Counted from the stretch's first letter, positions 3,001 to 47,693 are shown. The stretch: DNA of 64,000 nucleotides from Candidatus Omnitrophota bacterium (GCA_029261065.1 JAJDCB010000011.1:111168-175167); one strand, 5' to 3'. Made by a program: numbers and translations. The notes: generated by a model not told the origin, from the sequence alone.

Positions 3001-6000
3001 ATATTGATCTTCAAAAATATGCTTTGGCCAGTCGTTACTATAATCGTGCTGAGCAGTTAACAAACAAGACATCTAGTTCTTTAAAAGAGAAAAGTAATTC
3101 ACCCATGATTGGTTTTGCAAGAACGAAAAGCGGTCTGCTTTTAACAGAACATGAGATTGATATTGATATATTGGAAAACTACGATGGAAGAATTATTACT
3201 AAAGAGCAGATAGTGTATTTGGAGAGCGCTCTTAAATTAGTTCAATATTATTTAGGAAGAGAACGCGTAGATCTTCTTGTTGCTTTTGAAAAATTAAAGA
3301 AGATGGTGGATCTTGGTTTGATAAGAGCAGCCCCATTTGATCGTATTTATGGAACTATTAAAGAAGACCGGACATATGTTCATGGGCATGCAGGTGTAGA
3401 AAAAGGTATTTACTTAGATAACGTTATTCTTCAAAATCCGCTTGAGTTAATTTTTACTTTGATAAATTTGGTTGGCAGCCTTCACGGACAATCTCATTCT
3501 GAAAATAGTGCTTTAAAGTTTGATTTTATTTTAGATAACGGATTCTATGAGGGATTAGTTGAAAGTGGAATCGTTAATCAAACAAAAAAAGATTCTGCTG
3601 ATCAGCCTTCGATAAAATTATTGCAGAATATCATTGTAAGATTCAATCAAGAGTCTCTTCTTATTCGTCAATCTGTAGAAATTCCTAAATATTTACATAC
3701 GGTTGATCTTCAAGCAATTATAAATCACTACCTGTTTGCAATATTACTGAGAATCGCATCAGGGGAGGTTGTTATTTCAGATCGATTAAGGACTTCCATG
3801 AAGCAGGCAATACCACCATTGGAGAATATTCCAGATCATTTGGTTATTGTTGCGGTTCCAGGCACATTTGATCCACCTCATTTTAATCATATTATTGCTT
3901 TGTTACAGGCTATGCTATTTGCAATGCAAAATGAGAAAGGAAGGCGGGTGACATTTATAGGATTTTTAAAAAATAATTTATTCGATGATGAGGAAATAGG
4001 TTATAAACCGTTTAAATCAAAAGCCTATCACAGAGAAGCCATGGCCAAGCAATTAACGGACATATTTTTTCCTTTAATCAATTTTGCAGGTGCCGATTTA
4101 GGATACCTTCAATCGCATTACTATCAAGAAAGTAGCTTAAGACTGATTGATTTGAATCGTTATCAAACAATGGGTTCTCCTAAACCTGTAAGTTTTTACT
4201 TAGGCTCTGGTGCAGACAATTTTGTTAGAAATCGAAAGGCCTTGCATTACATGCTAGGAGAAAGACATGGTGAATTTGAAAACGTAACATTTAGGATTGT
4301 TATGATTGATGCGCGTTTTAATTCTACATTGGAAGGTGGCTCTGTACATGAGATTCCCTTTGATCAATCCAAATTCAGGCAACTCACACAATATTATAGA
4401 AGACCATATGAAATTCATGCGATCGTAGGACTTCAGGCGACACATTTTAGATCAACAGATCTAAGAGGAGGGTTTGGGGACAGTCATGTGCCGGTATCTA
4501 TACGGAATTATTTTAGAATGAATGCATTATATTCTTTGGACAGAATAAGACAAAGCGCACAAAATACAACTTTAGATGATACGGCATTAATTAGATTTTC
4601 CAGTATATATTCTCCAGGCTATGGCGTTAGTGATCATTTAGAATCTCTTAATTGGGAGTTGTTGCAGGAGTTTGAACTGACAATACATCAATTTTATCTT
4701 TTTCACGGTGATGAAAAAGTGCAAGGCTATACTGAACTGAAAATAGGAAAGGGAACTCTAGTTTATATCCCGTTACCGAATTTAGAAGGTCACCCTGAGG
4801 AATTGTTTAATTTTCAAAAGGCTCTAAGAGATCGTTTACGTTCCCTTTACAGCAGACATCAGGAGGGAGCCTTTAAGCAACCCATCATTTATGTTAATCA
4901 TGATCCGGGTAAACCGGCTTCCCTTGTATTTGATCAAGAGGTAGCTCAGTATCCGGATATTCGTCAGTCGATTGAGTATCATTGGGGCAGAGGCTATGTT
5001 GAACACGACCTTCTTTATCAATTAACAAGCAACGTTCCTTCAGCTAGCGTAACGGTATTAGGATTGGAGGACATATTACCTGAATCGACTGTTGAATTAG
5101 GCAATGGCGTTGATGTTGTCTATTTTAATCCAGCTGATGTAACGAAAGGACGTTTTAGAAAGGAATATGCTGTTTCTGAAAATCAGCTTATTGTTTTTGC
5201 TCCGGCAAGGTTAGTTAGAGAAAAAGGTCATATGGATATACTGCAGGTTGCTTTATTACTGCAAAAACAGGGTCAATTTAAGGATGTTACCTTTGTGTTT
5301 GCGGGCTTAGATGATGATCAGAATTTTTTAACAGAAATGAAGAGGTTTATAAAGTTGCAGAAATTGCAGTATAGATTTTTATTTGTTGGAAATCTTAAGG
5401 GGCATCGGTTATTAGAAGGTTATCGAGATTCGGATATAGGATTATTAGCATCACATAGTGAAGGGACGCCTAGATCAGTTATCGAAATGCAGGCAATGGG
5501 TCTGCCCGTTATTGCAACAAATGTTGGAGGAACGGCAAATGTTATTCTAGATGGGGATTCCGGTTATATAGTAGAAAAGGAAGATGTTCCTGACATCTTC
5601 TTTAGATTAAAGGTGTTGCTCTCAAGTCAGGTTATCCGTACAGAATTTGGTGCTGTAGGCCGGGCAAACACTGTTAACAAATTCTCATTAGAAAAATTAG
5701 CTCAAAGGCATACAACTTTTTACACATCGTTATTATCCTCGGAAGATAATGGAAAGATAGATCCATCGAAGAGACAATCTTCACCGATGGAGTCATTATT
5801 CCTACCGCATGACGGCAATGTCATCGAAGACATCGTTTTTGATCCAACCGATAAAGATGCTGAAATAGTTTATAAAAGTGGAAGACGTGAAGAGATAGTT
5901 TCTAATTACATGCCTGAATTTGACTCAGAAATTGTTAAATTTTATAGCTACAGCAAAAGATCAGCCGCTGTTACCTATATCAATGAAAAAGGATTGGTAT

Positions 6001-9000
6001 CTTTAGCCGTGAAACTTAAAGACGCGCCACCGTTTGAGATGTTCACTCCTTTTGATTTCGTTCGTGGAGTGACCGACGTTCGGTTTAATTTAACAGAGAG
6101 TGGCATAGCAGCTATATTCGATTTTAATTATGATCCTGTAAATCCACCGGTACGTATTAAAATAGTTAATATGATAGATTCCAAATTGATTGAAGATATG
6201 TTTACAGGAGCTGGAATCAAAAGGCAGCTATCGGAGCGTTTAGGAAAAGAAGTTCATCCTAATATTGAAGTCCGCTTTTTTGAATCATCATATGAAGGTT
6301 TTGTGATAGTAACCTATAACACACTAGAAGAGAGGAAACGCAAAGTAACAGTTGTACAACTAACAAGCTCACCATTATCTTTAGAAGATCAAGGAAAGAC
6401 GGGTACATATAATAAATCATCACTCATCATGCCTCAGAATGTAGAAGCTGGAGTTGCAACTTTAGCACCAAGCAGTGCAACTTTTACTCTAACCGAACGA
6501 TTAAAATTGATGTTAAGCACTCGCGCTCCTCCAACAGGGTTTAGCACATTTGTTCTTTTAACTATCTTATCAGCCTTAATGTTTTTAACATCCCCCGCAG
6601 CATTACAAGCACAAGAATCTTTTAATCCAATCCATCCAAATATTCATTTGGTTCATGACAATAAAAATAAAAGAATTGTTCCTTGGTCCACACCAATAGA
6701 ACTGCACGATGAAAATAACAAGTGGGTTATGAATTATTTTAGTGGCATGCCCCTTGATTTGTTATTGAATTTTGAACAAAGACAAATTAAAGCACAGAAG
6801 GCTAGAACGAAACAAGCTTTTCCTGAGCCGATTCAAGTTAGGCGAACGAAATCATTAACGATTCACTTTAAGTATATAGAAGAAGGAACGATTAACATCA
6901 TTTTACACGATGCCCATGATGCAACACGAGACATTAGATTGCCACCAGCGCACCTGCAAACAAGCGATAAAGCTTCCGTTACTTTGTTTGTCTCGAAAAT
7001 TCCATGGAAGAATATGAAAGAAGTAGGCGCTATTTCGATCGAATGGGATAAAAGCGAAGAGGCTGGTGTAACGGTTGATACTTTAGAAGGTTTAAAAGTT
7101 CGCCCAATCATCGTTATTCCGTCAGTAATAATAGTAGAATTTTTAGATTTTTTTGAAGCAAAATTAAATCAACCATGGTTGCAAAGTAAATATCAAAAGC
7201 AGGAAAAAGATTATCCGCATAGTTCAAGCCCGGTAGGTACGGAAACAATAAGTTTGATTTCATTGTTCATTGATCCTGCCTTCGTTGTTGGAGCAGTAGT
7301 GATATTAAGTGCTTGGTTCTGGAAGACGCGATTACGTCATCGTGTATTCAATACATATGTAGACGATTTCATCATTGGGATTTTACATTTCGTTGGAGGA
7401 TTGGTTTTTGTAATTGTCTCAGGATCTTTTCTAGATTTCCCTTCGGAACAGCCTGATTTTGAAAAAATAGGTCCGTTTGGATTTTTAATAGCGACTATTG
7501 TTTTACTTATAAGCGGGCTTTTTACAGGAATTATTGGATTTACTTTATTAAAAGGGTTTGTTGGGTATACCCTAACCTTTAATCCGAAACGTATTTTAAC
7601 TTATAAAGATAACTGGAATAATATGGGGTTTCGCTATTTTCGTTATAATACGGATCTATATAGAGATTACTTAGAGACATTAGTTCCAGAAAAATTTGAA
7701 TTGGCTATAAACAATGGAATAAATGAATTGAGAAATCAATTATTTATTGAAAATGAAAAAGGTGAGGGAAGTGATGAAGCAAATTGGACGCAGCATGAAC
7801 AATGGATTAAAAATTATGCTTCCTTGGCAGCCAGTGAATATATAGATCCGATACAACGTGAGTTTATACGGAATGAGGTAATCAATCTTTTCAGGTGGGC
7901 TTATGAGCTTACTGAAATAGCAAATATTAAAACGGGTATTATTCAAGAATTAAAAACTATCGGTGGAGATGAAGCGGTGCAGATGATTGACGATATTATT
8001 TCTTCAAAGGATGATAGATATGATATGGAGGAATTAGTAGGTGTATTAGGGAAAATAACTGGACCTACAGAAGGAATTTCTACACTAGAGAAAGCAATTA
8101 AAGGTTCAGGAAAGAGGACAGCAAAAAGTGCCGTTCAACTTTTAGGCAAAAAAGAAGGTTCGCAAGTAAATCAAATTCTTTTCAATATTATTAAAGAAAG
8201 ACGTCAAGGTTTAGTGTACGACGCTGTTGTTGGCCTTGGGAAAAATATGAGGGAGGACGTCTTATCAGAGCTGATTGATATTTTGAGAAACACGCCTGAA
8301 AGGGTAGGGGAGGAAGCTGCACATGCATTGGGTTCCATTGGAGATGTGAAACACATTCCTGATTTAATGACAGTTCACATATTAAATCGTGGTCCAGGTT
8401 CCTATTCAAATGTTCACCCCTTTAGTGAAGCATTCAAAAAAATATGGAATCGAAATAAAGATAAGACAAATGCTGTAAATCAAGATTATATGGGGCTTGC
8501 CGTTATTTTGGCCTTTATGCATTCAGGAGATCTATTGCACACACCATTATTTGAAGCTCGAAATAAGGGAATAATTACGGGCTATCTATTTAATCATGCC
8601 GAACATCGGCAAGTTACCAATCGTGGTTTTGTTCCGTTAACTCTAGAGCCGGGAATATTAACAGCATCTTATGGGTTTGTTTTTGAACGTAAAGAATTTA
8701 GCATTGAGAAAATGGCGAATAAGCTTGGAATTGCGCCAACATTAATATTGGAAGTTAATGAATCTGGCGAAAAGGACTCTCTTGTGTGGGGGGATGGATT
8801 ACTTCGTGGGAAGGTATCCAATGAACAGATATATCTATATTTACCTTCTGTTCAACTAATACATAATGCCCAGAAGGGTATTTTTGATGGTTTCAACGAC
8901 GTTAAGCTGTTGGGTATTGCACCTAATTTAAGTAAAGTATTTTATGTAATGCCTTATGGGGAAGTATTTAGTTGTTGCATGTTAGGGAACGAATCTATTA

Positions 9001-23430: not shown

Positions 23431-24003
23431 TTACATCCCATACTGTTTCCATAGGTCTTCGAATTCTTTGTGAACATCTTTGCCGTAATTGGCTGTTAGT
23501 TCTTTAAGTAGGGATAAGTTAATTTTATCTGCGGAAATTTTTATAATTCCAATCGCATCGTTGATGTCTTTAGAGCTTCCAGCAAAAATTTTCATGGCGA
23601 TGAGATCTTCCATACTAATGATTTTAATCGAAGAGTTCTGGAAGTTTGCTTGGTTTGTTCGTGTTAAGGCATCTTCTTTCATGCCTTTAATACCGAATAA
23701 AAGATCAACACGATTTTTAAACGTATCTTCAACATTGATGACCGCTGCAATGGGATCATCGAAGTCTCCTGTTCTATGATTTACCTGAAGACCTGCTTCA
23801 GTAAGAGCTTTGACAGTGTTTTGTAATCCGTGCTTGGAATCATCGAAATAAATAATGGCGTCAGTATCCATACTAGCTCTAACGACACCGTAAAAGGATG
23901 CTGCAAATGCTCCAATAATGGCGTAGGAGACGTTTATTTTGGATAAGATTTCGATGACATCAAGAAGTAAGAGTGGTGATTGTCCAGGGGTGGTTGTTCT
24001 CAT
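23431..24003 (-). CDS. Hypothetical protein with a nucleotidyltransferase (Pol-beta superfamily) fold
   Basis: 190 aa. GAFAASFYGVVRASMDTDAI fits the G[SA]-x9-D-x-D minimal nucleotidyltransferase signature. Its ATG overlaps the upstream small ORF by 4 nt (ATGA coupling). Confidence 0.5.
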   Translation of the reverse strand: MRTTTPGQSPLLLLDVIEILSKINVSYAIIGAFAASFYGVVRASMDTDAIIYFDDSKHGLQNTVKALTEAGLQVNHRTGDFDDPIAAVINVEDTFKNRVDLLFGIKGMKEDALTRTNQANFQNSSIKIISMEDLIAMKIFAGSSKDINDAIGIIKISADKINLSLLKELTANYGKDVHKEFEDLWKQYGM

Positions 24004-24167
24004 TTGTTAGATCTTGAAGCTTGGTTGCGGAATTTTGATCCTGCAAGGTAGACTTGCGTCATTAATTGAGAATGGTTGTAGAAGGCTTCAAGACGTTCTT
24101 CGGGGGTCATGCTTTTGCTGATACGGATAAGGTCGTCTTGGTCTTGTTGTAATATTTTTGAATGCAT
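24000..24167 (-). CDS. Small hypothetical protein (55 aa) translationally coupled to the nucleotidyltransferase-fold gene
   Basis: MHSKILQQDQDDLIRISKSMTPEERLEAFYNHSQLMTQVYLAGSKFRNQASRSNK. The longer ORF in the track, running to 24338, reads into the REP-like element. Confidence 0.35.
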   Translation of the reverse strand: MHSKILQQDQDDLIRISKSMTPEERLEAFYNHSQLMTQVYLAGSKFRNQASRSNK

Positions 24168-24218
24168 GATGTTAATATAGCATATATTTAGGAAAATATC
24201 CAAATGAGCTATAAACAT

Positions 24219-24290
24219 GTCATTCCCGCGTAAATGGAGGACAAGTAGTAGTTGTTTTGGCTCACGGATTCCCGCTTGCGCGGGAATGAC
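24219..24290. repeat. REP-like palindromic doublet (copy 1), between mutL 3' end and the small-ORF pair
   Basis: GTCATTCCCGCGTAAATGGAGGA ...spacer... GGATTCCCGCTTGCGCGGGAATGAC. Two inverted hairpin-forming units, the same family as the copies at 32773, 47633 and 53494. Confidence 0.7.
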
Positions 24291-24300
24291 ATGATTACTA

Positions 24301-26118
24301 TTACGTGCGCAAGAATTGCTTATCCAAAAACCCCTCACTCATCTCAATAACCGTCGGCCTTCCATGAGGGCAGGTAAAGGGATCTAAACATTGAAGTAAT
24401 TGTTCGCGTTGATATTCGGCTTGTTGTTGATTGAGTTTATCTCCAGCCATGATGGATGAGCGGCAGGCTCGGCGGGCGATCGTGTCATGGTCGCATTTGG
24501 AGATGTTTTCACCAGCCAAGAGATGGCGGACGGCTTTCTCGACATCTTTGATGAGTTGTGGGTAGGTGTGAATGGCTATTGTGTCATCATCCCATTGTGT
24601 ACTTTCTAATCCCATTTCTTTTAGTTTTTCTTTCGATTCTTCCCACACCAAAATTTCTTGAGGAGTAAGTTTTATTGATACAGGGGCAAGAAGATGTTGC
24701 ACTTCTAAGTTGTTGTTTTGCATTTGGCGAATTAATTGTTCGTAGGTGATGCGTTCGGCAGCGGCATGTTGGTCGACAACTAAAAGGGAATGACCCGATT
24801 CAAACAAGATGAATTTATTGATAAAGGATCCGATGTATCGCGCTTGTTCTAATTTTAATTGCAAACTATCCTGACTTTGTGCGTTTAAAGCATCATCGGG
24901 AATAAACATCTCTTGAGTTTGTCCGCCACGGGGATAAGCGTATTCTTCTAACGCAACTTCTCTTCTTGGAGACGCGCTGGAAGAAGAGGAATCAAATAAT
25001 CGTTCGGGGGGGCTGTCTGGTTGTCGCTCATAAGGGTTGCTTGCCGAAAGCGCGCGCGAAATAGTGTTGTTACCGGTGGCATCGTCATCATCATCAGCGA
25101 CAACCGCTTGTTTACTTTGACCTTTTGACATTAACGTGTTCTGACATAAGATTCGTAATAACGAACATAACCCACGTTCATCTTTAATTTTAACCTCACG
25201 CTTGGTGGGGTGAATATTAACATCCACCTCATCAGCGGGAATGGTGAGGTCGATCATAAAAAAGGGAAAGAAATCTGGCGGCAAAATTAGACGGAACACT
25301 TGGTTTAAGTGAAAAGAAATACTTTTGTTAAAGACTGGGCGGCCATTGATAAAAACAAATTGCATGTCACGTCTGGGGCGCCGAATATTCATATCTCCTA
25401 AAACAACTTTGACCTTACAGCCGCGATCCGGAATGTCTTCTTCGGCTTCAAGGAGATGTTTAGAATCAAAATTAAGAGCCTCAGAAATACGGGTGACAAG
25501 ATTTTCTTGTGGCATAACATCAACAAGCGTTTTACCTTGATGCGTTAAAAGAAAACGAATGTCTTTATGATAGAGTGTGTAGGGGATAAAAGTATCGAGA
25601 ACTTGATGAATTTCTGTAGAATTTGTTTTTAAGAAATTTTTACGCGCAGGTGTATTAAAGAAAAGTTCTTTAATCTCAATTTCTGTTCCTTTGGTGTTAA
25701 AGGCGCAAGGTTTAATATGTTGCTTCTCAGAACCCCGTAAATAAATTTCCCAGCCAGATTCTTGAGCATCTGTTTTTGAACGTAAAATAATATCAGAAAT
25801 AGCAGCTACACTATATAACGCCTCACCACGAAAACCCAAAGACATGATGTTGAATAAATCATCAAGCGATTGAATCTTACTAGTCGCATGACGTAAAAAA
25901 ATTGTCTCAAGATCATCTTTACCGATACCAGAACCATTATCTTTAATATGGATAAGAGACTTACCTGCATCTTTAAGGTGTAGTTCGATAGATGTTGATT
26001 CGGCATCAATGGAGTTTTCCATTAATTCTTTAACGACGGATGCCGGACGCTCGATGATTTCACCGGCGGCGATTTTGCTGATGATGTCGGGGGGTAATAT
26101 GTGGACTTTATTTTTCAT
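24301..26118 (-). CDS. mutL: DNA mismatch repair protein MutL
   Basis: The N-terminus MKNKVHILPPDIISKIAAGEIIERPASVVKELMENSIDA is the canonical MutL GHKL ATPase start. The C-terminal dimerisation region ends ...GRPTVIEMSEGFLDKQFLRT. The 5' extension to 26229 in the track reads into the MITE-like element. Confidence 0.9.
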   Translation of the reverse strand: MKNKVHILPPDIISKIAAGEIIERPASVVKELMENSIDAESTSIELHLKDAGKSLIHIKDNGSGIGKDDLETIFLRHATSKIQSLDDLFNIMSLGFRGEALYSVAAISDIILRSKTDAQESGWEIYLRGSEKQHIKPCAFNTKGTEIEIKELFFNTPARKNFLKTNSTEIHQVLDTFIPYTLYHKDIRFLLTHQGKTLVDVMPQENLVTRISEALNFDSKHLLEAEEDIPDRGCKVKVVLGDMNIRRPRRDMQFVFINGRPVFNKSISFHLNQVFRLILPPDFFPFFMIDLTIPADEVDVNIHPTKREVKIKDERGLCSLLRILCQNTLMSKGQSKQAVVADDDDDATGNNTISRALSASNPYERQPDSPPERLFDSSSSSASPRREVALEEYAYPRGGQTQEMFIPDDALNAQSQDSLQLKLEQARYIGSFINKFILFESGHSLLVVDQHAAAERITYEQLIRQMQNNNLEVQHLLAPVSIKLTPQEILVWEESKEKLKEMGLESTQWDDDTIAIHTYPQLIKDVEKAVRHLLAGENISKCDHDTIARRACRSSIMAGDKLNQQQAEYQREQLLQCLDPFTCPHGRPTVIEMSEGFLDKQFLRT

Positions 26119-26134
26119 GGTTTTAAATAATGCT

Positions 26135-26354
26135 GCAAGGAATAACCAAGTTACAAGGTACAAGATATCCGGCCTACGGCCGGACCACTGTGGGCAAAAA
26201 AGAAACAATACCCAATTCCAAATAATCAAACATTTGGTAATTTGGTTATTTTCTGGTTATTTTGTAATTGATTGTTGGTTATTTTTTGCCCCGCTTTTTG
26301 CGGGGTCCCGCCAAAGGCGGGATAACTTGTACCTTGTAACTTGGTTATTCTTGC
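26135..26354. repeat. MITE-like element copy A (~220 bp), with terminal inverted repeats and internal GC-rich hairpins, between mutS stop and mutL start
   Basis: TIR GCAAGGAATAACCAAGTTACAAGGTACAAG...CTTGTACCTTGTAACTTGGTTATTCTTGC. Internal hairpins CCGGCCTACGGCCGG, CCCCGCTTTTTGCGGGG and CCCGCCAAAGGCGGG. Reverse-complementary to copy B. Confidence 0.7.
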
Positions 26355-26371
26355 GAGTTTTAGTAAATAAG

Positions 26372-28975
26372 CTATCTGTTTTTATTTATTTCTTTCTGCC
26401 ACGTCACCACCCAATTAACCACCTCAACCGGCGTCATCTCATTAACATCTAACGCCTCAATCGCCTCACGCATCTTGGCAGCTACAGGGTCTGGTGCAGG
26501 TGAAAACAAATTTAATTGATCTTCACTTGATGGTTTTGTATCAATTTGATTCTTAACATCACTCTTTAATTCTAATTGTGTCAAAATTTCTTTAGCGCGA
26601 TTGATGATATTATGAGGAATACCAGCGAGTTTTGCAACATAAATACCATAGCTATCATCTGTACTACCAGGCACAATTTTATGAAGGAAGATTATTTCAT
26701 CTTTCCATTCTTTAACGGCAACATTATAATTTTTTACACCAGGATGCTTCTCAGCTAAGACGGTTAGTTCGTGAAAATGGGTGGCAAATAATGTTCGTGC
26801 TTTTGTATGAGAAAAATGTTCCGCTAAAGCCCAAGCCAAACTTAATCCATCATAAGTGCTTGTCCCACGACCAATTTCATCAAGAATAATTAAGCTGCGA
26901 TCTGTAAAATTATTGAGGATGTCGGCGGTCTCATTCATCTCAACCATAAACGTGCTTTGTCCTTTACTAATATCATCATGCGCACCAATGCGTGTAAAAA
27001 TTTTATCCACGATACCAATATGAGCGCTTTGGGCAGGAATAAAACTGCCTACTTGAGCCATGATGGTAAGAATTGCTGTCTGGCGGATATAAGTCGATTT
27101 ACCGGCCATGTTAGGTCCAGTAAGAATAACAAGATGGTCGTCGTTGGAATCAAGTAAGGTGTCATTAGCGACAAAAGTCTCCGTTGTCGTCCGTTCCACA
27201 AAGGGATGCCGTCCCGCTTTAATATCAAGAAGCGCGTCTTCGTGAATGTGTGGGCACACATAATTATGTGATTGCGCTAAAACAGTGAAGGAATAAATAC
27301 AATCAATGGTTGCGATGTTGTGACAGAATTTGTGTAATTCGATGGAGTGATCAAGAATACGTTTTTGAATTTCTTGGATGATGCGATGTTCGATCTTTAA
27401 AATTTTATCTTGGGCAGTAAGAATTTTTTCTTCGTATTCTTTGAGTTTTGGTGTGATGTAACGCTCGGCGTTAACGAGTGTTTGTTTGCGAATAAAATCG
27501 GCTGGAACGTTTTTGGAATGTAGCTTTGTCACTTCGATGTAATAGCCAAAGACTCTGTTAAATCCAATTTTAAGCGAATTAATACCGCTGCGTTTGATTT
27601 CTTCCGCTTGCAAACTTTTAAGCCAACCTTGTCCTGTTTCTTGGATCGCACGCAACTCATCTAATTCTTTATCATATCCCTTTTTAATCACTTTGCCTTC
27701 GGGTTTGGATAAAGGAATGTCTTCATTAATCGTCTCTAGTAAAAATTTACGAAGTTCGGGGATATCATCTAATTGAAATAAACTATTGCTACCTTTAAGA
27801 GGTTTGATAACGTCATTGATTTTTGGTAATAGGTTTAATGTGTTTCGAATAGCCAGGAGATCTTTTGCATGAGTATAGCCGCAGCTTAGTCGTGAAATGT
27901 TTTTTTCGATATCAGGAATTTGATCAAGACATTCTTTTAGCTGCTGTTGAATTTCAGTGTGATCTTTAAGATGTTTGGTTGCTTCTTGACGTTGTTTGAT
28001 TGAATTTTCTTTTTTCAAAGGATGTAGGTACCAATAGGAAAATAATCGTCGTCCTAAGGGCGTTAATGTTTCATCAAGGGTTTTGATAAGCGTGTGTAAT
28101 TCTAGTCCGTGATAAGCGGCAGGAGAGATGTAAACAAAATTTTCGCTTGTATAAAGGGAAAGTTTATCCACATGTTGTAAGGGTTGTTTGTTCATCGCCT
28201 TTAGATACTCGATTAATGCACCCGTACTAGATATAGCAGAGTTTCGATCCTCGATTCCAAAACCGTTTAAATTTTTAACATGAAAATGATTCAGCAAAGT
28301 TTGTTTAGCCATATCAAGACTAAAGGTCCAATCGTCGCATGGGCTTAATGTGATAGTTTTGGATTGAAGAAGGGGGTTTTTAAAAATTTCTTGTATGATT
28401 TCTTCTTTAGATTCTGGATAAATACATTCATAAACAGGAAGTTTGGTTAGAAGTTCGATAAGTCGATGTTGATTTAAGGGAAATTGATTTGTTTGGACTT
28501 GACCGATCGCTGGATCAATAAAAGAAATTCCCATGTGTTTGGAATCAGGGCTAAGCGCAAAAATATAACGGGAGGCTGTTGAGTTTTCATCGAGGTAGGT
28601 TCCTGATGTAATGGTGCGAATGACATCTCGTTTGACAATGCCTTGAGCGGTAGCCGGATCTTCAACTTGTTCGCAGATAGCGACTTTGTGTCCTGCTTTA
28701 ATGAGACGCGCAATATAATTTTCAGCCGAATGATGAGGAACTCCGCACATCGGCACACGATTTGCACTTCCTTTTCCACGAGCTGTCAAAACAAGATCGA
28801 GGACCTTCGAACCGATCTTGGCATCTTCAAAAAACATTTCATAGAAATCACCTAGTCGATAAAAAAGAATACTACCTGGATGTTTGGCTTTGAGGGCTTG
28901 ATACTGGCGAAGCATGGGAGTTGTTGATGCTTCAGAGGACGTTTTTGAGGGCACGGTGGAGCTGGGCACGTTCAT
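26372..28975 (-). CDS. mutS: DNA mismatch repair protein MutS
   Basis: The start MNVPSS...TPMLRQYQALKAKHPGSILFYRLGDFYEMFFEDA matches the MutS N-terminal mismatch-binding block. A Walker A GPNMAGKSTYIRQ is present, and the C-terminal region is intact. The longer ORF to 29248 reads into repeat copy B. Confidence 0.9.
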   Translation of the reverse strand: MNVPSSTVPSKTSSEASTTPMLRQYQALKAKHPGSILFYRLGDFYEMFFEDAKIGSKVLDLVLTARGKGSANRVPMCGVPHHSAENYIARLIKAGHKVAICEQVEDPATAQGIVKRDVIRTITSGTYLDENSTASRYIFALSPDSKHMGISFIDPAIGQVQTNQFPLNQHRLIELLTKLPVYECIYPESKEEIIQEIFKNPLLQSKTITLSPCDDWTFSLDMAKQTLLNHFHVKNLNGFGIEDRNSAISSTGALIEYLKAMNKQPLQHVDKLSLYTSENFVYISPAAYHGLELHTLIKTLDETLTPLGRRLFSYWYLHPLKKENSIKQRQEATKHLKDHTEIQQQLKECLDQIPDIEKNISRLSCGYTHAKDLLAIRNTLNLLPKINDVIKPLKGSNSLFQLDDIPELRKFLLETINEDIPLSKPEGKVIKKGYDKELDELRAIQETGQGWLKSLQAEEIKRSGINSLKIGFNRVFGYYIEVTKLHSKNVPADFIRKQTLVNAERYITPKLKEYEEKILTAQDKILKIEHRIIQEIQKRILDHSIELHKFCHNIATIDCIYSFTVLAQSHNYVCPHIHEDALLDIKAGRHPFVERTTTETFVANDTLLDSNDDHLVILTGPNMAGKSTYIRQTAILTIMAQVGSFIPAQSAHIGIVDKIFTRIGAHDDISKGQSTFMVEMNETADILNNFTDRSLIILDEIGRGTSTYDGLSLAWALAEHFSHTKARTLFATHFHELTVLAEKHPGVKNYNVAVKEWKDEIIFLHKIVPGSTDDSYGIYVAKLAGIPHNIINRAKEILTQLELKSDVKNQIDTKPSSEDQLNLFSPAPDPVAAKMREAIEALDVNEMTPVEVVNWVVTWQKEINKNR

Positions 28976-29040
28976 AGGGAAGATGATAGCATAATGGGGC
29001 AGGGGTGGCGAGTAAAAATTAGAAAGTGAGGCAGGAATAA

Positions 29041-29288
29041 CCAAGATACAAGATATCCCGCCTTTGGCGGGACCAAGGCAAGATACTCCGCTTTTAGCGG
29101 GGCCCCGCGAAAAGCGGGGCAAAAAATAACCAATAATCAATTTTAAAATAACCAGAGAATGATCAATCAACCAAACGTTTGAATATTTGGAATTGGGTAT
29201 TGTTTCTTTTTTGCCCGGCCCCGCCAAGGCGGGCCGAGGTCCGGCCAAAGGCCGGATTTCTTGTATCTTGTATCTTGGTTATTCCTGC
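29041..29288. repeat. MITE-like element copy B (~248 bp), inverted relative to copy A, in the mutS upstream region
   Basis: TIR GCAGGAATAACCAAGATACAAGATA...TATCTTGTATCTTGGTTATTCCTGC. Internal hairpins CCCGCCTTTGGCGGG, CCGCTTTTAGCGG, CCCCGCGAAAAGCGGGG and TCCGGCCAAAGGCCGGA. Contains the reverse complement of GGGCAAAAAAGAAACAATACCCAATTCC found in copy A. Confidence 0.7.
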
Positions 29289-29402
29289 CAGTTTTACCCC
29301 CAGTACTCGGACATCCCCCCCCTTGCACCCCTATATATTAATGGTATACTTCCATCAGACGTTAAATTTAGGCAATAATCTTCCAAAATAAATGGGAGCA
29401 AT

Positions 29403-30494
29403 ATGATGAAAATTTTAAATATCACTGTTTATATATTTGTTGCAACATTTTTGTTTTCAAGTACTTACGATGTATCAGCTTTAGAGGAAAATCGTAGGAC
29501 CCCAGCGGATTTTCTTGTGGAGGTGGGCAAAACTGACCTTCAAAAGGGGAATATCCAGCAGGCCATTCATGAGTTTAGTAAGGCCCTTATGATGGACCCT
29601 CATCATAAGGAAGCCAAGCAGCTTTTAGTCCAATTTGGCATTGAAGATGGGCTGTATACTAAGCAAAAGACGCATTTAAGCCGCATTTCCGATATGGGTG
29701 ATCATATCCGCTCTTACCGCGCCAAACTAGAAGATTTAGAGCGTCAAAAGGCTGACCTTAAAAATCAATTTGCACGATTACAGGTTGAGCATTTTTCAAT
29801 TATCAGAGAAAATAAAAATAAAGACCTAGAGATTTCAAAGCTCAAAACCACAATCACCGCGATCCAAAAGACAGCCAATCATAATAAGGGTATTTATGAA
29901 GGCAAGGTCGGTCAAATGGATCAGGCAAACGAATATCATCGTGAAAGTCTGCTTGATATGCAGGAGGCGATGAACCAAGAAAAGGAAGCTGCATTAGCAC
30001 CGCTTGCTAATCATAGAAAATTGAAGCAAAATTATGAAGCATATCACGATAAATTCGATAAGAGTATTGAGTATTCTGCGTATTTAGAAGAGGAGTTATT
30101 AAGCCTTTCCGATAAATATCATTCCTTAAACAGTCAAATTTCTGATCAGTATGTTCATCAAGATAAACTGATTCATGTATTAGAAGATTATCTTAAGCTT
30201 CGTGAAGCAAGTTTAGACGATGCTTTGGATGAGGCGTTATATAAGCACGTTGATTTGACTCAGGCGGACAGTATGGTTTTAGCCAAATTAAATGAGCTTA
30301 TTGACTTACATGATGATGTGGATCAAAAACGAAATCGTATTGATGATCTTCATGATGATCTGATGATTAGTAAAGATATGATCTTGGATCGCAATAAGGA
30401 GATTAATGATTTACAAGAAGAAATACAAGGGGCGGATCATTATATTCAAATCCTCTTGGATGAGCAGCGCGAGAAGAGAGAAATGTTAGAATAA
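29403..30494 (+). CDS. Secreted or membrane-anchored coiled-coil protein (hypothetical)
   Basis: N-terminal signal/anchor MMKILNITVYIFVATFLFSSTYDVSALEE, a TPR-like segment, then a long heptad-rich region. Followed by an intrinsic terminator. Confidence 0.55.
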   Translation: MMKILNITVYIFVATFLFSSTYDVSALEENRRTPADFLVEVGKTDLQKGNIQQAIHEFSKALMMDPHHKEAKQLLVQFGIEDGLYTKQKTHLSRISDMGDHIRSYRAKLEDLERQKADLKNQFARLQVEHFSIIRENKNKDLEISKLKTTITAIQKTANHNKGIYEGKVGQMDQANEYHRESLLDMQEAMNQEKEAALAPLANHRKLKQNYEAYHDKFDKSIEYSAYLEEELLSLSDKYHSLNSQISDQYVHQDKLIHVLEDYLKLREASLDDALDEALYKHVDLTQADSMVLAKLNELIDLHDDVDQKRNRIDDLHDDLMISKDMILDRNKEINDLQEEIQGADHYIQILLDEQREKREMLE

Positions 30495-32802: not shown

Positions 32803-32845
32803 TAGTTGTTATCGTGCACGGGTCCCCGCTTTCGCGGGGATGACA
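32773..32845. repeat. REP-like palindromic doublet (copy 2)
   Basis: GTCATCCCCGTGGAAGCGGGGAGC ... GGGTCCCCGCTTTCGCGGGGATGAC. Overlaps the last 10 codons of the upstream gene and ends 14 nt before the next start. Confidence 0.7.
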
Positions 32846-45068: not shown

Positions 45069-45155
45069 TGGTGCTGGAGGAGGGAATCGAACCCTCATGG
45101 CCTTGCGACCGCTGGATTTTGAATCCAGTGCGTCTACCAATTTCACCACTCCAGC
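45069..45155 (-). tRNA. tRNA-Leu (anticodon CAA), class II with long variable arm, CCA encoded
   Basis: The reverse complement reads GCTGGAGTGGTGAAATTGGTAGACGCACTGGATTCAAAATCCAGCGGTCGCAAGGCCATGAGGGTTCGATTCCCTCCTCCAGCACCA. It has a 7-bp acceptor stem, anticodon loop UUCAAAA, T-loop GGTTCGATTCC, and is 87 nt long. Confidence 0.85.
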
Positions 45156-45330
45156 GATAATACTCTATTTCTTGCAAATCGCTGGAATCCTTCGAAGCTC
45201 AAACACGAAAGTATTTGAGCGAAGTAGGATCCAGCAACCTATATATTACATTATTGTAAAGTTTGCAATTTTGCTACACTTAAATACTTTCGTGTTTGAG
45301 CTTCGAAGAACGAGCAATCTATAAGCTACA

Positions 45331-45585
45331 TTATTGTAAAGGATGCAACAACCTCTTTTTAAGAAATGCAAACCCAGAACCAGATTTCAAATATCTTTCC
45401 AAATCAGCTGCTAATTTTTTATTCTTAAGAGCAATATACGTTTCAATCTCCCAGGGAGAGTAGCGTTTGCTAAAAATTACTTTATTACTGTTGTGTTCTT
45501 TTATACGTTTTTCTAAATCTTGAGTGAATCCAATATAAATTTGTCCGGTTTGTTTTAAGCTTTTTAGAATGTAAACGTAGTACAT
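45331..45585 (-). CDS. GIY-YIG nuclease superfamily protein (small, stand-alone)
   Basis: MYYVYILKSLKQTGQIYIGFTQDLEKRIKEHN carries the GIY...YIG motifs and the conserved R and E. Shortened from the 105-aa track ORF to the ATG preceding YVYIL. Confidence 0.7.
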   Translation of the reverse strand: MYYVYILKSLKQTGQIYIGFTQDLEKRIKEHNSNKVIFSKRYSPWEIETYIALKNKKLAADLERYLKSGSGFAFLKKRLLHPLQ

Positions 45586-45672
45586 TTTTGCCTTTTTGAT
45601 GTAATTTGTAAAGGGGCAATGTAATACGCGTAATTTTTGATAGAGCAACTAGCTTATTTTTGTTCAAATAGA

Positions 45673-46075
45673 GCAAGAGCTCTTCTACGTTCCAATACTT
45701 TCGTGTTGGAACTACGAAGAAGCATTCTCTACGCTCAAATTATTAAATTAGAAGGACTTGTTTCTTCGAAGCTGAAACATATGCGTGCAATGCGTAACCT
45801 TAATATTCGCAAGAGCTCTTCTACGTTCCAATACTTTCGTGTTGGAACTACGAAGAAGCATTCTCTACGCTCAAATTACTAAATTAGAAGGACTTGTTTC
45901 TTCGAAGCTGAAACATATGCGTGCAATGCGTAACCTTAATATTCGCAAGAGTTCTTCTACGTTCCAATACTTTCGTGTTGGAACTACGAAGAAGCATTCT
46001 CTACGCTCAAATTACTAAATTAGAAGGACTTGTTTCTTCGAAGCTCAAACACGGAAGTATTTGAGCGTAGAAGAA
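45673..46075. repeat. Tandem repeat, ~136-bp unit x ~3 copies, abutting the 3' end of tRNA-Ala
   Basis: Units start at 45673, 45809 and 45945 with GCAAGAGCTCTTCTACGTTCCAATACTTTCGTGTTGGAACTACGAAGAAGCATTCTCTACGCTCAAATTACTAAATTAGAAGGACTTGTTTCTTCGAAGCTGAAACATATGCGTGCAATGCGTAACCTTAATATTC. Each unit carries a GTTCCAA...TTGGAAC hairpin. The last unit diverges into CTTCGAAGCTCAAACACGGAAGTATTTGAGCG, which also occurs in inverted pairs at 45190-45305. Confidence 0.8.
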
Positions 46076-46148
46076 TGGACCCGAGGGGGTTCGAACCCCT
46101 GACTTCTACAATGCCATTGTAGCACTCTCCCAACTGAGCTACGGGCCC
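46076..46148 (-). tRNA. tRNA-Ala (anticodon GGC), CCA not encoded
   Basis: The reverse complement reads GGGCCCGTAGCTCAGTTGGGAGAGTGCTACAATGGCATTGTAGAAGTCAGGGGTTCGAACCCCCTCGGGTCCA. It has the G3:U70 Ala identity pair, anticodon loop AUGGCAU and T-loop GGTTCGAAC. Confidence 0.8.
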
Positions 46149-46252
46149 AAATAAAGTCTTTTTTTTTGCAGCATATATCCGAATGATGGATCAATATATC
46201 ATCGCCGCTAGTTCTTGTCAACTTTATCAGGGGTGGTGGTGATATGCTAATC

Positions 46253-46373
46253 TTGTGAGCTCACGGTGCCAGCGAGGCACAGTATTCCAGGCGAGTTACG
46301 ACCCCGCCATAGAAAGGCGGGGGAGTTGTTTGAGCTTGGAATATTGTGCCTCGCTGGCACCGTGAGCTCACAA
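46253..46373. repeat. 121-nt near-perfect palindrome with a nested GC hairpin; candidate structured RNA or regulatory/recombination site
   Basis: Left arm TTGTGAGCTCACGGTGCCAGCGAGGCACAGTATTCCAGG and right arm CTTGGAATATTGTGCCTCGCTGGCACCGTGAGCTCACAA form ~38-bp arms with 2 mismatches. The ~43-nt spacer holds CCCCGCCATAGAAAGGCGGGGG. The mirror ORFs at 46261-46451 on both strands are artefacts of this symmetry. Confidence 0.7.
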
Positions 46374-46482: not shown

Positions 46483-47622
46483 ATGGAAAAAATATATTTT
46501 GATTATGCGGCCACCACGCCAACCGACCCCGAAGTGATTAAGGCGATGCAACCCTATTTTTTTGAACACTTTGGGAACGCTTCAAGTCCCCACTCTATTG
46601 GGCGGGAATCTCAAAAGGCCTTGGAAGATGCTAGAGGGGTTGTTTCTCAATTTGTGGGAGCTAATCCTAATGATATCGTTTTTAATTCTGGGGCCACGGA
46701 AGGTAATAATCATGCGATTAGTGGGATTGTTTACCATGCGATGGATCGGGGAAATCATATTGTTGTGTGTTCAGCAGAACATCATTCTGTACTCGTACCA
46801 ATCGAACAATTACAACGGGATGGTTTTAAAGTCACGTATTTGCCCGTTGATTCAAATGGGCTTGTTGATCCTGCATCGGTCAAAGCGGCTATAAATGATC
46901 AAACTATCTTGATTGCTGTCATGCATGCCAACAATGAAGTGGGTAGTATTCAACCTATTAAAGAGATAAGCGTCATTGCCAAAGAAAGAAATATTCCTTT
47001 CTTAGTTGATGCTTGTCAGAGCGTGGGTCATTTGTCTTTGGATGTTAATGAATTGGGTTGCGATCTATTAACTTTTTCGGCACATAAATTTTATGGGCCT
47101 AAGGGTGTTGGCGCAATATATATAAGAGAAGGTATTAAGGTTTCTTCATTTTTGTTGGGAGGTGATCAAGAAAGAGATCGGCGGGCCTCTACACAAAATA
47201 TTTCGGCCATAGTTGGGATGGCAAAGGCCATCGAGCTTTGTAAAGATGAGTTGTTAACAGAGTATGCACGAGAAGAAAAAATGCGTGACAGGCTTATTGA
47301 AGAAATACCAAAACGGATTGATGGGGTTAAGGTTAATGGCGATTTGAAAAACCGTTTAGCGAACAACGCACATTTTTCTTTTGAAAATCTTGAGGGCGAA
47401 TCCTTATTAATGAGTTTGGATATGCAAGGTATTTGTGCCTCAATGGGATCAGCATGCACATCCGGTGCGATGGAACCATCGCATGTGTTACGGGCTATGG
47501 GATTAGATGATGCTCTTGCTTATGGATCGTTACGGATTACGCTGGGGCGATGGACAACGGATGAGAATATTGATTTTTTACTAGAGCAGTTGCCGCAATT
47601 GGTGGGAAGTTTACGTTTGTAA
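46483..47622 (+). CDS. iscS: Cysteine desulfurase (NifS/IscS family, class V aminotransferase)
   Basis: IYFDYAATTP at the N-terminus, the PLP-lysine block SAHKFYGPKGVGAIY and the active-site loop MGSACTSG. 379 aa. Confidence 0.85.
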   Translation: MEKIYFDYAATTPTDPEVIKAMQPYFFEHFGNASSPHSIGRESQKALEDARGVVSQFVGANPNDIVFNSGATEGNNHAISGIVYHAMDRGNHIVVCSAEHHSVLVPIEQLQRDGFKVTYLPVDSNGLVDPASVKAAINDQTILIAVMHANNEVGSIQPIKEISVIAKERNIPFLVDACQSVGHLSLDVNELGCDLLTFSAHKFYGPKGVGAIYIREGIKVSSFLLGGDQERDRRASTQNISAIVGMAKAIELCKDELLTEYAREEKMRDRLIEEIPKRIDGVKVNGDLKNRLANNAHFSFENLEGESLLMSLDMQGICASMGSACTSGAMEPSHVLRAMGLDDALAYGSLRITLGRWTTDENIDFLLEQLPQLVGSLRL

Positions 47623-47632
47623 GTTATCGCAC

Positions 47633-47693
47633 GGATCCCCGCTTTCGTGGGGATGACAAGGCTTTCTGTCATTCCCGCGAAAGCGGGGATCAC
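47633..47693. repeat. REP-like palindromic doublet (copy 3), between iscS and birA
   Basis: GGATCCCCGCTTTCGTGGGGATGACA ... GTCATTCCCGCGAAAGCGGGGATCAC. Confidence 0.7.

Follow-up and report, generated by a model that had tools for sequence, protein, structure and literature searches.

Inverted hairpin repeats around mutS in a Candidatus Omnitrophota genome: probable ORF-less relatives of rRNA intervening sequences

Why does a mismatch-repair gene lie between two inverted copies of the same repeat, and does this arrangement regulate it? The question is raised by a 64-kb stretch of DNA from a Candidatus Omnitrophota bacterium (hereafter the window; coordinates are positions in the whole stretch unless another locus is named), in which mutS is bracketed by copies A and B of a short element, inverted relative to each other and with no further copy present in the 64 kb. 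A preliminary description of the locus called the elements MITE-like (miniature inverted-repeat transposable element) and proposed that they attenuate transcription around mutS, or that recombination between them inverts or deletes the gene and so modulates mismatch repair. We find no support for such a mutator switch. A and B are probably copies, lacking an open reading frame (ORF), of a hairpin-armed selfish cassette, the full form of which carries a gene of ~115 amino acids (aa) of the PF05635 family in its loop; the copies in the window belong to a selfish repeat family and are unremarkable within it, with no evidence of a mismatch-repair switch.

Copy A (220 bp; 26135–26354) is located within the 253-nt spacer between mutS and mutL, 17 nt from the mutS stop codon and 16 nt from the mutL ATG. 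Copy B (260 bp; 29030–29289) is located within the 427-nt spacer between mutS and a divergent gene that starts at 29403; its distances to the two start codons are 54 nt (mutS) and 113 nt (divergent gene). The limits first given for copy A are exact; those given for copy B (29041–29288) are corrected here because its perfect 26-nt terminal inverted repeat (TIR; GGCAGGAATAACCAAGATACAAGATA) begins at base 29030, making the left end 11 nt longer. The TIR motif GGAATAACCAAGWTACAAG matches the window four times, at the four ends of A and B, with 0.04 matches expected from shuffles. TIRs had been claimed for each copy and are present in both, in copy A as 64-nt arms that are 80% complementary. The inverted orientation and the shared reverse-complement blocks also hold: alignment of A with the reverse complement of B gives 84% column identity (i.e. 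16% divergence), a 138-nt internal block (29079–29216 on the B side) is 87% complementary between the copies, and the longest exact tracts shared are 33 nt in inverted and 13 nt in direct orientation.

The left terminal arm of copy A (GCAAGGAATAACCAAGTTACAAGGTACAAGA; 26135–26165, plus strand) is built of 7-nt units, and the right arm (26324–26354, minus strand) is its reverse complement; a hidden Markov model (HMM) of the arms matches them at 26138–26176 (E 3e-9) and 26351–26312 (E 2.6e-8), respectively. Between them lies a core palindrome (26192–26291; the part 87% complementary to 29079–29216) whose 5′ half (..CCAAATAATCAAACA) is rich in A and C and whose 3′ half (TTTGGTAATTTGGTTATT..) is rich in G and T. 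By eye, two TIR positions are T and G in copy A, and A and A in copy B, on both arms of each, although the 7-nt units slip in register between arms, so that columns of the terminal stems are not reliably alignable for covariation. A match to an integration host factor site (AATCAAACATTTG) in the centre of copy A was dropped, having no counterpart in copy B.

Each element is a single, whole-length imperfect palindrome which folds as one long, stable hairpin on either strand (z −10 to −16 overall). The fold energies are −105 to −110 kcal/mol for copy A and −139 kcal/mol for copy B, with z-scores of −10 to −12 against dinucleotide shuffles. When bases were shuffled within the arms the z-scores were −13.5 and −16.5 for the two elements, hence the complementary composition of the arms is insufficient by itself to explain the fold. 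At the base of the stem there are 26–29 uninterrupted base pairs (29 bp in copy A), and ~90–100 pairs overall. Since both strands fold about equally well, strand asymmetry in G-U pairs is uninformative on selection at the RNA level. A search of Rfam gave no family at the gathering threshold, the sole matches being generic long-hairpin plant microRNA precursors (43 bits vs 200).

The count of three to five GC-rich hairpins per copy was accurate: copy A has three and copy B five. In copy A they are TCCGGCCTACGGCCGGA (26168–26184), followed on the minus strand by a U-rich heptamer tail that makes it terminator-like, and the neighbouring pair CCCCGCTTTTTGCGGGG and TCCCGCCAAAGGCGGGA (26289–26305 and 26306–26322). 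Copy B has three in its left arm (29057–29071, ~29087–29102 and 29103–29119; span 29057–29119) and two in its right arm (29217–29235 and 29240–29256), of which the outer, taken with its U-rich tail, resembles a terminator on the plus strand. The pattern CCCGC-N3-6-GCGGG has eight matches in the window against 0.03 expected; five of the eight are inside A and B, and none is in coding sequence. An outermost GC hairpin with a U-rich heptamer tail is flagged as terminator-like at the exit side of both copies, although terminator-like sites in the region are no commoner than in shuffles. Each of the two larger indels between A and B corresponds to one module, of 23 nt in the left arm of B and of 16 nt in its right arm, both absent from A; the small GC hairpins may be secondary modules which the arms acquire and lose.

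Solo GC hairpins of one family (GGATCCCCGCTTTCGYGGGGATGACA) are also found just past gene ends, at 24262–24291 (10 nt past the mutL stop codon), 32816–32845 and 47629–47691, the last (47629/47667) being an inverted doublet like that of a REPIN (an inverted pair of repetitive extragenic palindromic, REP, sequences). They look like the modules nested in A and B.

Relatives of the element were sought with an 18-base TIR pattern over a genome collection and a 25-base pattern over metagenomes, giving 17 genome loci and nine metagenome loci, respectively (loci outside the window are designated by L numbers). By count alone the 17 genome matches approximate the chance expectation, yet most extend as palindromes with the same grammar; palindromic elements are present at at least 12 of the 17 genome loci and at most of the nine metagenome loci, whilst L003, L007, L010, L012 and L017 look like chance TIR matches. 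In these relatives, ends of 20–25 nt (GAATAACCAAGATACAAGATACAA) bound palindromes of 70–260 nt. The 5′ arm is A/C-rich and composed of 7-nt units (ATACAAG, AAACAAG, AATAACC, AATGACC), the 3′ arm is their G/T-rich complement (CTTGTAT, GGTTATT), and the polarity is the same read on either strand. The arms HMM scores the palindromic relatives at E 5e-11 to 3e-7 and reveals second copies in L015 and L026; two metagenome-assembled genomes (MAGs) have copies on two contigs each (L005 and L009; L011 and L014). The terminal 20–30 nt of A and B, and their arm grammar, recur in palindromes of several phyla: the MAGs are labelled Chloroflexi/Dehalococcoidia, Planctomycetia, Parcubacteria, Saccharibacteria and Omnitrophota, and arms are identical over ~25 nt among MAGs labelled Omnitrophota, Chloroflexi, Planctomycetia and candidate phyla radiation (CPR).

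The genes adjoining family members are diverse, and include purC (SAICAR synthetase), hisB (imidazoleglycerol-phosphate dehydratase), nadE (NAD synthase), etfB (electron-transfer flavoprotein), a CoA-transferase, tsaB, a folC-like ligase, purH, pth (peptidyl-tRNA hydrolase) and atpA (ATP synthase alpha); one copy occupies a tRNA-Leu/tRNA-Arg spacer. The family is not tied to mismatch-repair genes. The preliminary description had itself held that a lack of enrichment near such genes would tell against its proposal, and at the level of the family this is what is found, copies standing beside many unrelated housekeeping genes.

Two of the matches, L023 and L025, were not counted as elements, the 25-mer being located there in coding sequence. 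Both have a FemAB-like gene with an in-frame 25-nt sequence identical to the element TIR (L023 2760–2805 and 2977–3001; L025 ~6076–6100), and this gene also holds a GC-rich palindrome (GCCTGCCTGTCCTGCCTGTCGGCAGGCAGGCGGCAGGGCAGGC), recalling the in-frame palindromic insertions of Rickettsia.

The identity of the family is indicated by relatives that contain a gene. At L026 a second left arm is joined without a gap to the start codon of a gene that matches PF05635 (E 9e-13, above the Pfam cut-off), and at L026/L029 the complementary right arm directly follows the stop codon of this gene. In total, five independent loci (L026/L029, L030, L031/L032, L033-42 and L043-48) have these arms around a ~115-aa gene of PF05635 (23S_rRNA_IVP; a four-helix bundle protein), with the gene sitting in the hairpin loop; left and right arms at L031/L032, L033-42 and L043-48 are like those of L026/L029, and at L030 the same is true of the right arm. 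The left arm starts (G)AAATAACCAAGATACAAG..., is A/C-rich and abuts the ATG; the right arm is G/T-rich and ends ...CTTGTATCTTGGTTATTGG. The flanks of the PF05635 genes pair at −41 to −62 kcal/mol. The arms HMM, which was built without the cassette loci, matches the flanks of all cassettes fetched, in most cases both flanks, with '+' matches upstream and '−' matches downstream. Aligned to A and B, the cassette termini match copy B at 30/32 and 27/29 positions, with ~75% identity over 50–60 nt internally.

The point at which the two halves of the copy A core join (..AATAATCAAACA/TTTGGTAATTTGG..) corresponds to the position of the PF05635 ORF in the full-length relatives, and the inner arms of both A and B end, at the ORF site of the full form, with ..AATAATCAAAC/TTTGGT... 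At L030 an ORF-less copy lies next to an ORF-bearing one, and the right arm at this locus contains GC mini-hairpins similar to the ones in A and B. All six of the six cassettes are co-oriented with both neighbours, inside operons. At L032 (642–2848) a PF05635 cassette lies between two transketolase subunit genes and is followed by a second PF05635 gene with different, A-rich/T-rich arms of the same design; these cassettes occupy spacers of just a few nucleotides. A search with the L026 PF05635 protein returned 1250 homologues, many on contigs of <2 kb, several of which are named 'four helix bundle protein' and come from Omnitrophota or Margulisiibacteriota. In ~50 loci, no such pair of ends was found to enclose a transposase, and the ORF-bearing relatives fetched all carry PF05635.

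Intervening sequences (IVSs) of 23S rRNA are built in the same way. In Coxiella the IVS is a selfish element of 428 nt, which has an S23p (PF05635-family) ORF preceded by a poor Shine-Dalgarno sequence, is closed by a 28-bp terminal stem and is excised by RNase III; the same ORF is found in IVSs of Leptospira and Brucella, other IVSs are ORF-less, and IVSs replace hairpin loops in the rRNA (all PMC4990558). Genes for 23S_rRNA_IVP have also been described in rRNA insertions of CPR bacteria (PMC11270868) and, outside rRNA, between cmr2 and cmr3 (PMC3936711). The 23S rRNA IVSs (of Coxiella burnetii and Leptospira, and ORF-less in Salmonella) resemble the elements described here in their long terminal stem (28 bp in Coxiella, 26–29 bp here), in having full forms with PF05635 in the loop and no good Shine-Dalgarno sequence as well as ORF-less forms, in their sense insertion into transcribed DNA, in being AT-richer than the host, and in their sporadic spread across lineages.

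The principal structural feature of an IVS, complementary termini enclosing the element as a long stem, is present in A, in B and in the ORF-bearing cassettes; a PF05635 gene in the loop is present at the five related loci, with A and B being ORF-less. The rRNA-helix location of an IVS is not shared, since A and B lie beside mutS and their relatives between protein genes or tRNAs rather than in rRNA helices 9, 25 or 45; there is no rRNA in the window. In addition, the arms here are much longer (60–120 nt), consist of strand-asymmetric 7-nt repeats and contain nested GC mini-hairpins. We prefer the term 'IVS-type hairpin cassette, ORF-less form' for A and B because the ORF-bearing relatives carry PF05635 between the same arms. 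As for the term MITE-like, it is a fair description of form (short, non-coding, TIR-bounded and repeated, with relatives elsewhere), but no target-site duplication is seen and no transposase partner was found.

By analogy with IVSs, the arms would pair in RNA to form a long duplex from which RNase III would cut the element out, so that it would be tolerated in transcribed spacers; of the behaviours considered, such processing of the stem once transcribed seems the likeliest, although RNase III excision is demonstrated for rRNA IVSs and is adduced here by analogy only. More tentatively, it is possible that rRNA IVSs are the visible part of a general, cross-phylum class of hairpin cassettes, with or without PF05635, which colonise any transcribed spacer (operons, tRNA clusters, rRNA) and are removed from the transcript by their own stem. 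The PF05635 protein could be a mobility or maintenance factor of the element.

Several points weigh against identifying A and B as ORF-less cassettes with this behaviour. RNase III cleavage is taken wholly from analogy. Copy B, being in a divergent spacer, may not be transcribed, and an account at the RNA level leaves its position unexplained, as it does the movement of the cassette at the DNA level. Arm similarity past the terminal ~25 nt lies in low-complexity sequence. The taxon labels of the relatives are the titles of MAG records, in which binning errors are possible. A tblastn search found no PF05635 gene in the 64-kb window, i.e. no master copy is seen here. Finally, derivation may run either way: a cassette may have shed its ORF, or a hairpin may have acquired one.

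The consequences for the mismatch-repair genes depend on the layout of the locus. MutS (867 aa from the start MNVPSS) is encoded at 26372–28975 on the minus strand, and MutL (605 aa) at 24301–26118, 3′ of mutS on the same strand. The assignments first made are correct: mutS homologues carry all five Pfam MutS domains, and syntenic genes of mutL carry MutL domains. The best public MutS homologue is 71% identical and from Omnitrophota; the best homologues range from 60 to 71% identity, and those with names come, with few exceptions, from MAGs of Candidatus Omnitrophota/Omnitrophica. Looking up the exact MutS and MutL proteins for strain variants returned no record of either. The divergent neighbour (29403–30494, plus strand) has a weak match to a TPR domain. 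The N-terminal ORF extensions through A and B in the ORF track are, as had been suspected, real features of the track; they are artefacts which arise because the elements contain no stop codons.

With only 16 nt between copy A and the mutL ATG, copy A is necessarily within the mutL transcript, which must begin in or upstream of copy A. Since copy A must be transcribed for mutL to be expressed, it is plausible that the RNA is partly terminated, or processed, between mutS and mutL, and this part of the attenuation proposal stands as a prediction. The 29-bp basal helix of copy A would make a good RNase III substrate. Cleavage by RNase III at copy A would separate the mutS and mutL messages, and its outer GC hairpin with U-rich tail could add partial termination; copy A would then influence the mutS:mutL ratio in a fixed, constitutive way and not as a switch. 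The proposed effect of copy B on the mutS leader is doubtful because the best promoter-like site for mutS (28983–29011, minus strand; TCGCCA, a 17-nt spacer and a TG-extended TATCAT) lies past B, between it and the start codon; this site is a consensus match only, and promoter-like sites in the region are no more numerous than in shuffles. Copy B is thus probably between the two divergent promoters. The bracketing of mutS would then reflect two separate occupations of its spacers, possibly at pre-existing hairpins, with no dedicated device. Intramolecular replicative transposition was considered as the origin of the inverted pair and rejected, the mutS orientation being ancestral and the copies old (84% identity).

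A hairpin between mutS and mutL is not peculiar to the window. All four mutS-then-mutL spacers examined (the 253-nt spacer of the window, those of 280 nt in L027 and 62 nt in L028, and that of L050 with a 20-bp perfect stem) contain a long stem-loop which ends 2–17 nt before the mutL ATG; the sequences are unrelated, and the arms in L027 are purine-rich and pyrimidine-rich. In a further relative, L049, mutL is not adjacent to mutS. Amongst the comparison spacers of those loci, ~30% have stems of at least 13 bp. The recurrence is suggestive, over four loci, of either a selected hairpin or a preferred landing site; the mutS–mutL stem-loop of Omnitrophota could be such a site, with its hairpin loop comparable to those of rRNA helices. 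In L027 a ~70-nt near-perfect palindrome (CGAACCGTAAACGAACCTCGTAGGTTCGGAATTCCGAACCTACGAGGTTCGTTTACGGTTTG; 5895–5975) of unrelated sequence lies upstream of mutS, in the position of copy B.

These observations bear on four other explanations. That the mutS–mutL stem-loop is a host cis-regulatory hairpin (a processing site, attenuator or stabiliser) selected in Omnitrophota for the mutS:mutL ratio, with copy A as its exapted filling, is unlikely in our estimation; it would account for the four of four spacers with a long stem-loop against ~30% of others, and for the terminator-like outer hairpin and U-rich tail, but four loci are few, most spacers in L027 have long stems anyway, terminator-like sites do not exceed their frequency in shuffles, the same element family lies beside many unrelated genes, and copy B is left unexplained. 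Somewhat less probable still is a classical MITE, i.e. a deletion derivative of an insertion sequence (IS) moved in trans by a transposase recognising the ~26–30-bp TIRs, with the position at mutS incidental. The good TIRs of A and B, their small size and lack of an ORF, the two diverged copies in the window, and the several copies per contig or genome (L005 and L009, L011 and L014, two each in L015 and L026) in many genomes all suit a MITE. No consistent target-site duplication is seen at the four ends, however, where inspection found no shared abutting direct repeat (TAAATAA occurs 5–10 nt beyond both ends of A, with nothing comparable at B); moreover, none of ~50 loci had a transposase between such ends, the ORF-bearing relatives carry PF05635 instead, the whole element is palindromic rather than its ends alone, and plasmid, phage and viral collections gave 0 matches.

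We consider it very unlikely that A and B are mosaics of the REP/BIME type (bacterial interspersed mosaic element), in which the GC hairpins would be REPs moved by a REP-associated tyrosine transposase (RAYT; a Y1 transposase) and the A/T-rich parts BIME-like linkers. The solo GC hairpins after genes and the REPIN-like doublet fit this idea, as do the module-sized indels between A and B and the IS200-like Y1 fragment beside mutL in L050; against this, no GTAG/CGTC tag is present beside any of 12 GC hairpins, no RAYT/Y1 transposase was seen in the window (though not every ORF was scanned), and what is conserved and shared widely is the heptamer arm rather than the GC hairpins. The mutator switch, finally, in which mismatch repair would be toggled by recombination, either between the inverted copies, flipping the 2.7-kb mutS segment, or between direct sub-repeats, deleting it, appears extremely improbable. 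Inverted homologous repeats do surround a single gene, and the 33-nt exact inverted tract is within reach of RecA; the copies, however, have diverged by 16%, and three relatives (L027, L028 and L050) have mutS and mutL in the same order and orientation as the window, leaving RecA-mediated inversion unsupported, as the 13-nt longest direct tract leaves element-mediated deletion. An inversion would keep mutS intact and probably take its promoter-like site along; no recombinase is adjacent, the neighbours being a nucleotidyltransferase and the TPR protein; and the family has no association with mismatch-repair genes.

Compared with other repeats, the ORF-less hairpin cassettes show partial likenesses. 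Correia elements of Neisseria (100–160 bp) are TIR-bounded, intergenic and co-transcribed, and their hairpin is processed by RNase III and can alter expression of neighbours. A and B resemble them as short TIR-bounded intergenic repeats, whereas Correia elements duplicate TA at their target and occur in a single genus; we know of no Correia form bearing PF05635. The enterobacterial repetitive intergenic consensus (ERIC; also intergenic repeat unit, IRU) is, like A and B, a whole-length imperfect palindrome in transcribed spacers with longer variants formed by internal insertions, and the small GC hairpins of REPs and REPINs, single or in inverted doublets, are like the solo hairpins at 24262, 32816 and 47629–47691. 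The elements described here nevertheless differ from these proteobacterial ERIC, REP, BIME and REPIN sequences in having no sequence similarity to them, no GTAG/CGTC tag and no RAYT, and in their cross-phylum spread. SpyCIM1, which interrupts the operon between mutS and mutL in Streptococcus pyogenes and influences expression of mutL, is a precedent for a mutator switch; this island is 13 kb, phage-like, with an integrase and reversible excision, in contrast to copy A, which is 220 bp and non-coding and has no sign of excision. Cyanobacterial heptanucleotide short tandemly repeated repetitive sequences and Nezha-type MITEs also have 7-nt tandem units, for example TTGGTCA, which is present in L005 and L022 as well, and form stable intergenic hairpins, a possible resemblance. 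Both Correia elements and Nezha have been listed among MITEs (PMC3184786).

In the searchable literature, which is incomplete, we found no description of heptamer-repeat arms around PF05635 genes outside rRNA, nor of ORF-less derivatives with near-identical ends across phyla and nested GC modules; literature on this sequence, on Omnitrophota repeats and on PF05635 mobility likewise gave no account of these arms. The origin, mobility and function of rRNA IVSs and of the abundant PF05635 'four helix bundle' proteins are unsettled (PMC4990558), and the arm model together with PF05635 adjacency provides a searchable signature for cassette movement, for neutralisation by RNase III and for the role of the protein. 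For this locus, an attractive but unsupported story of a mutS switch is removed. There is also an impact on annotation, the elements causing spurious N-terminal ORF extensions and breaking metagenome assemblies.

Some further features were observed around mutSL. In the Omnitrophota relative L050 the fragment of an IS200-like Y1 transposase (7502–7906; Pfam E 1e-5) lies directly 3′ of mutL. In the window, an ORF of 7791 aa (30–23405, plus strand) fills the first 23 kb beside mutL, and in the syntenic relative L027 (10896–14586) the annotation gives the mutL neighbour a length of 44,961 aa. Such giant genes next to mutSL appear to be a conserved feature of this Omnitrophota lineage. Two small overlapping genes (23431–24338, minus strand) lie between the 7791-aa ORF and mutL; one of them is a DUF6036/DUF2204 nucleotidyltransferase, and the pair may be a toxin-antitoxin system.

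Two other hairpins occur elsewhere in the window. One (46253–46373), upstream of the gene at 46483, has 40-nt arms that are 95% complementary and a 41-nt loop containing a GC hairpin, with no match in Rfam. The other is located between tRNA-Leu(CAA) and tRNA-Ala(GGC), which are ~920 nt apart (45069–46149, minus strand): a 105-aa GIY-YIG nuclease ORF (45331–45648; Pfam E 6e-14) and three tandem 136-nt repeats (45673–46080) are enclosed by 43-nt inverted repeats (45268–45310 and 46034–46076). This stretch is another small selfish gene in a hairpin in a transcribed spacer.

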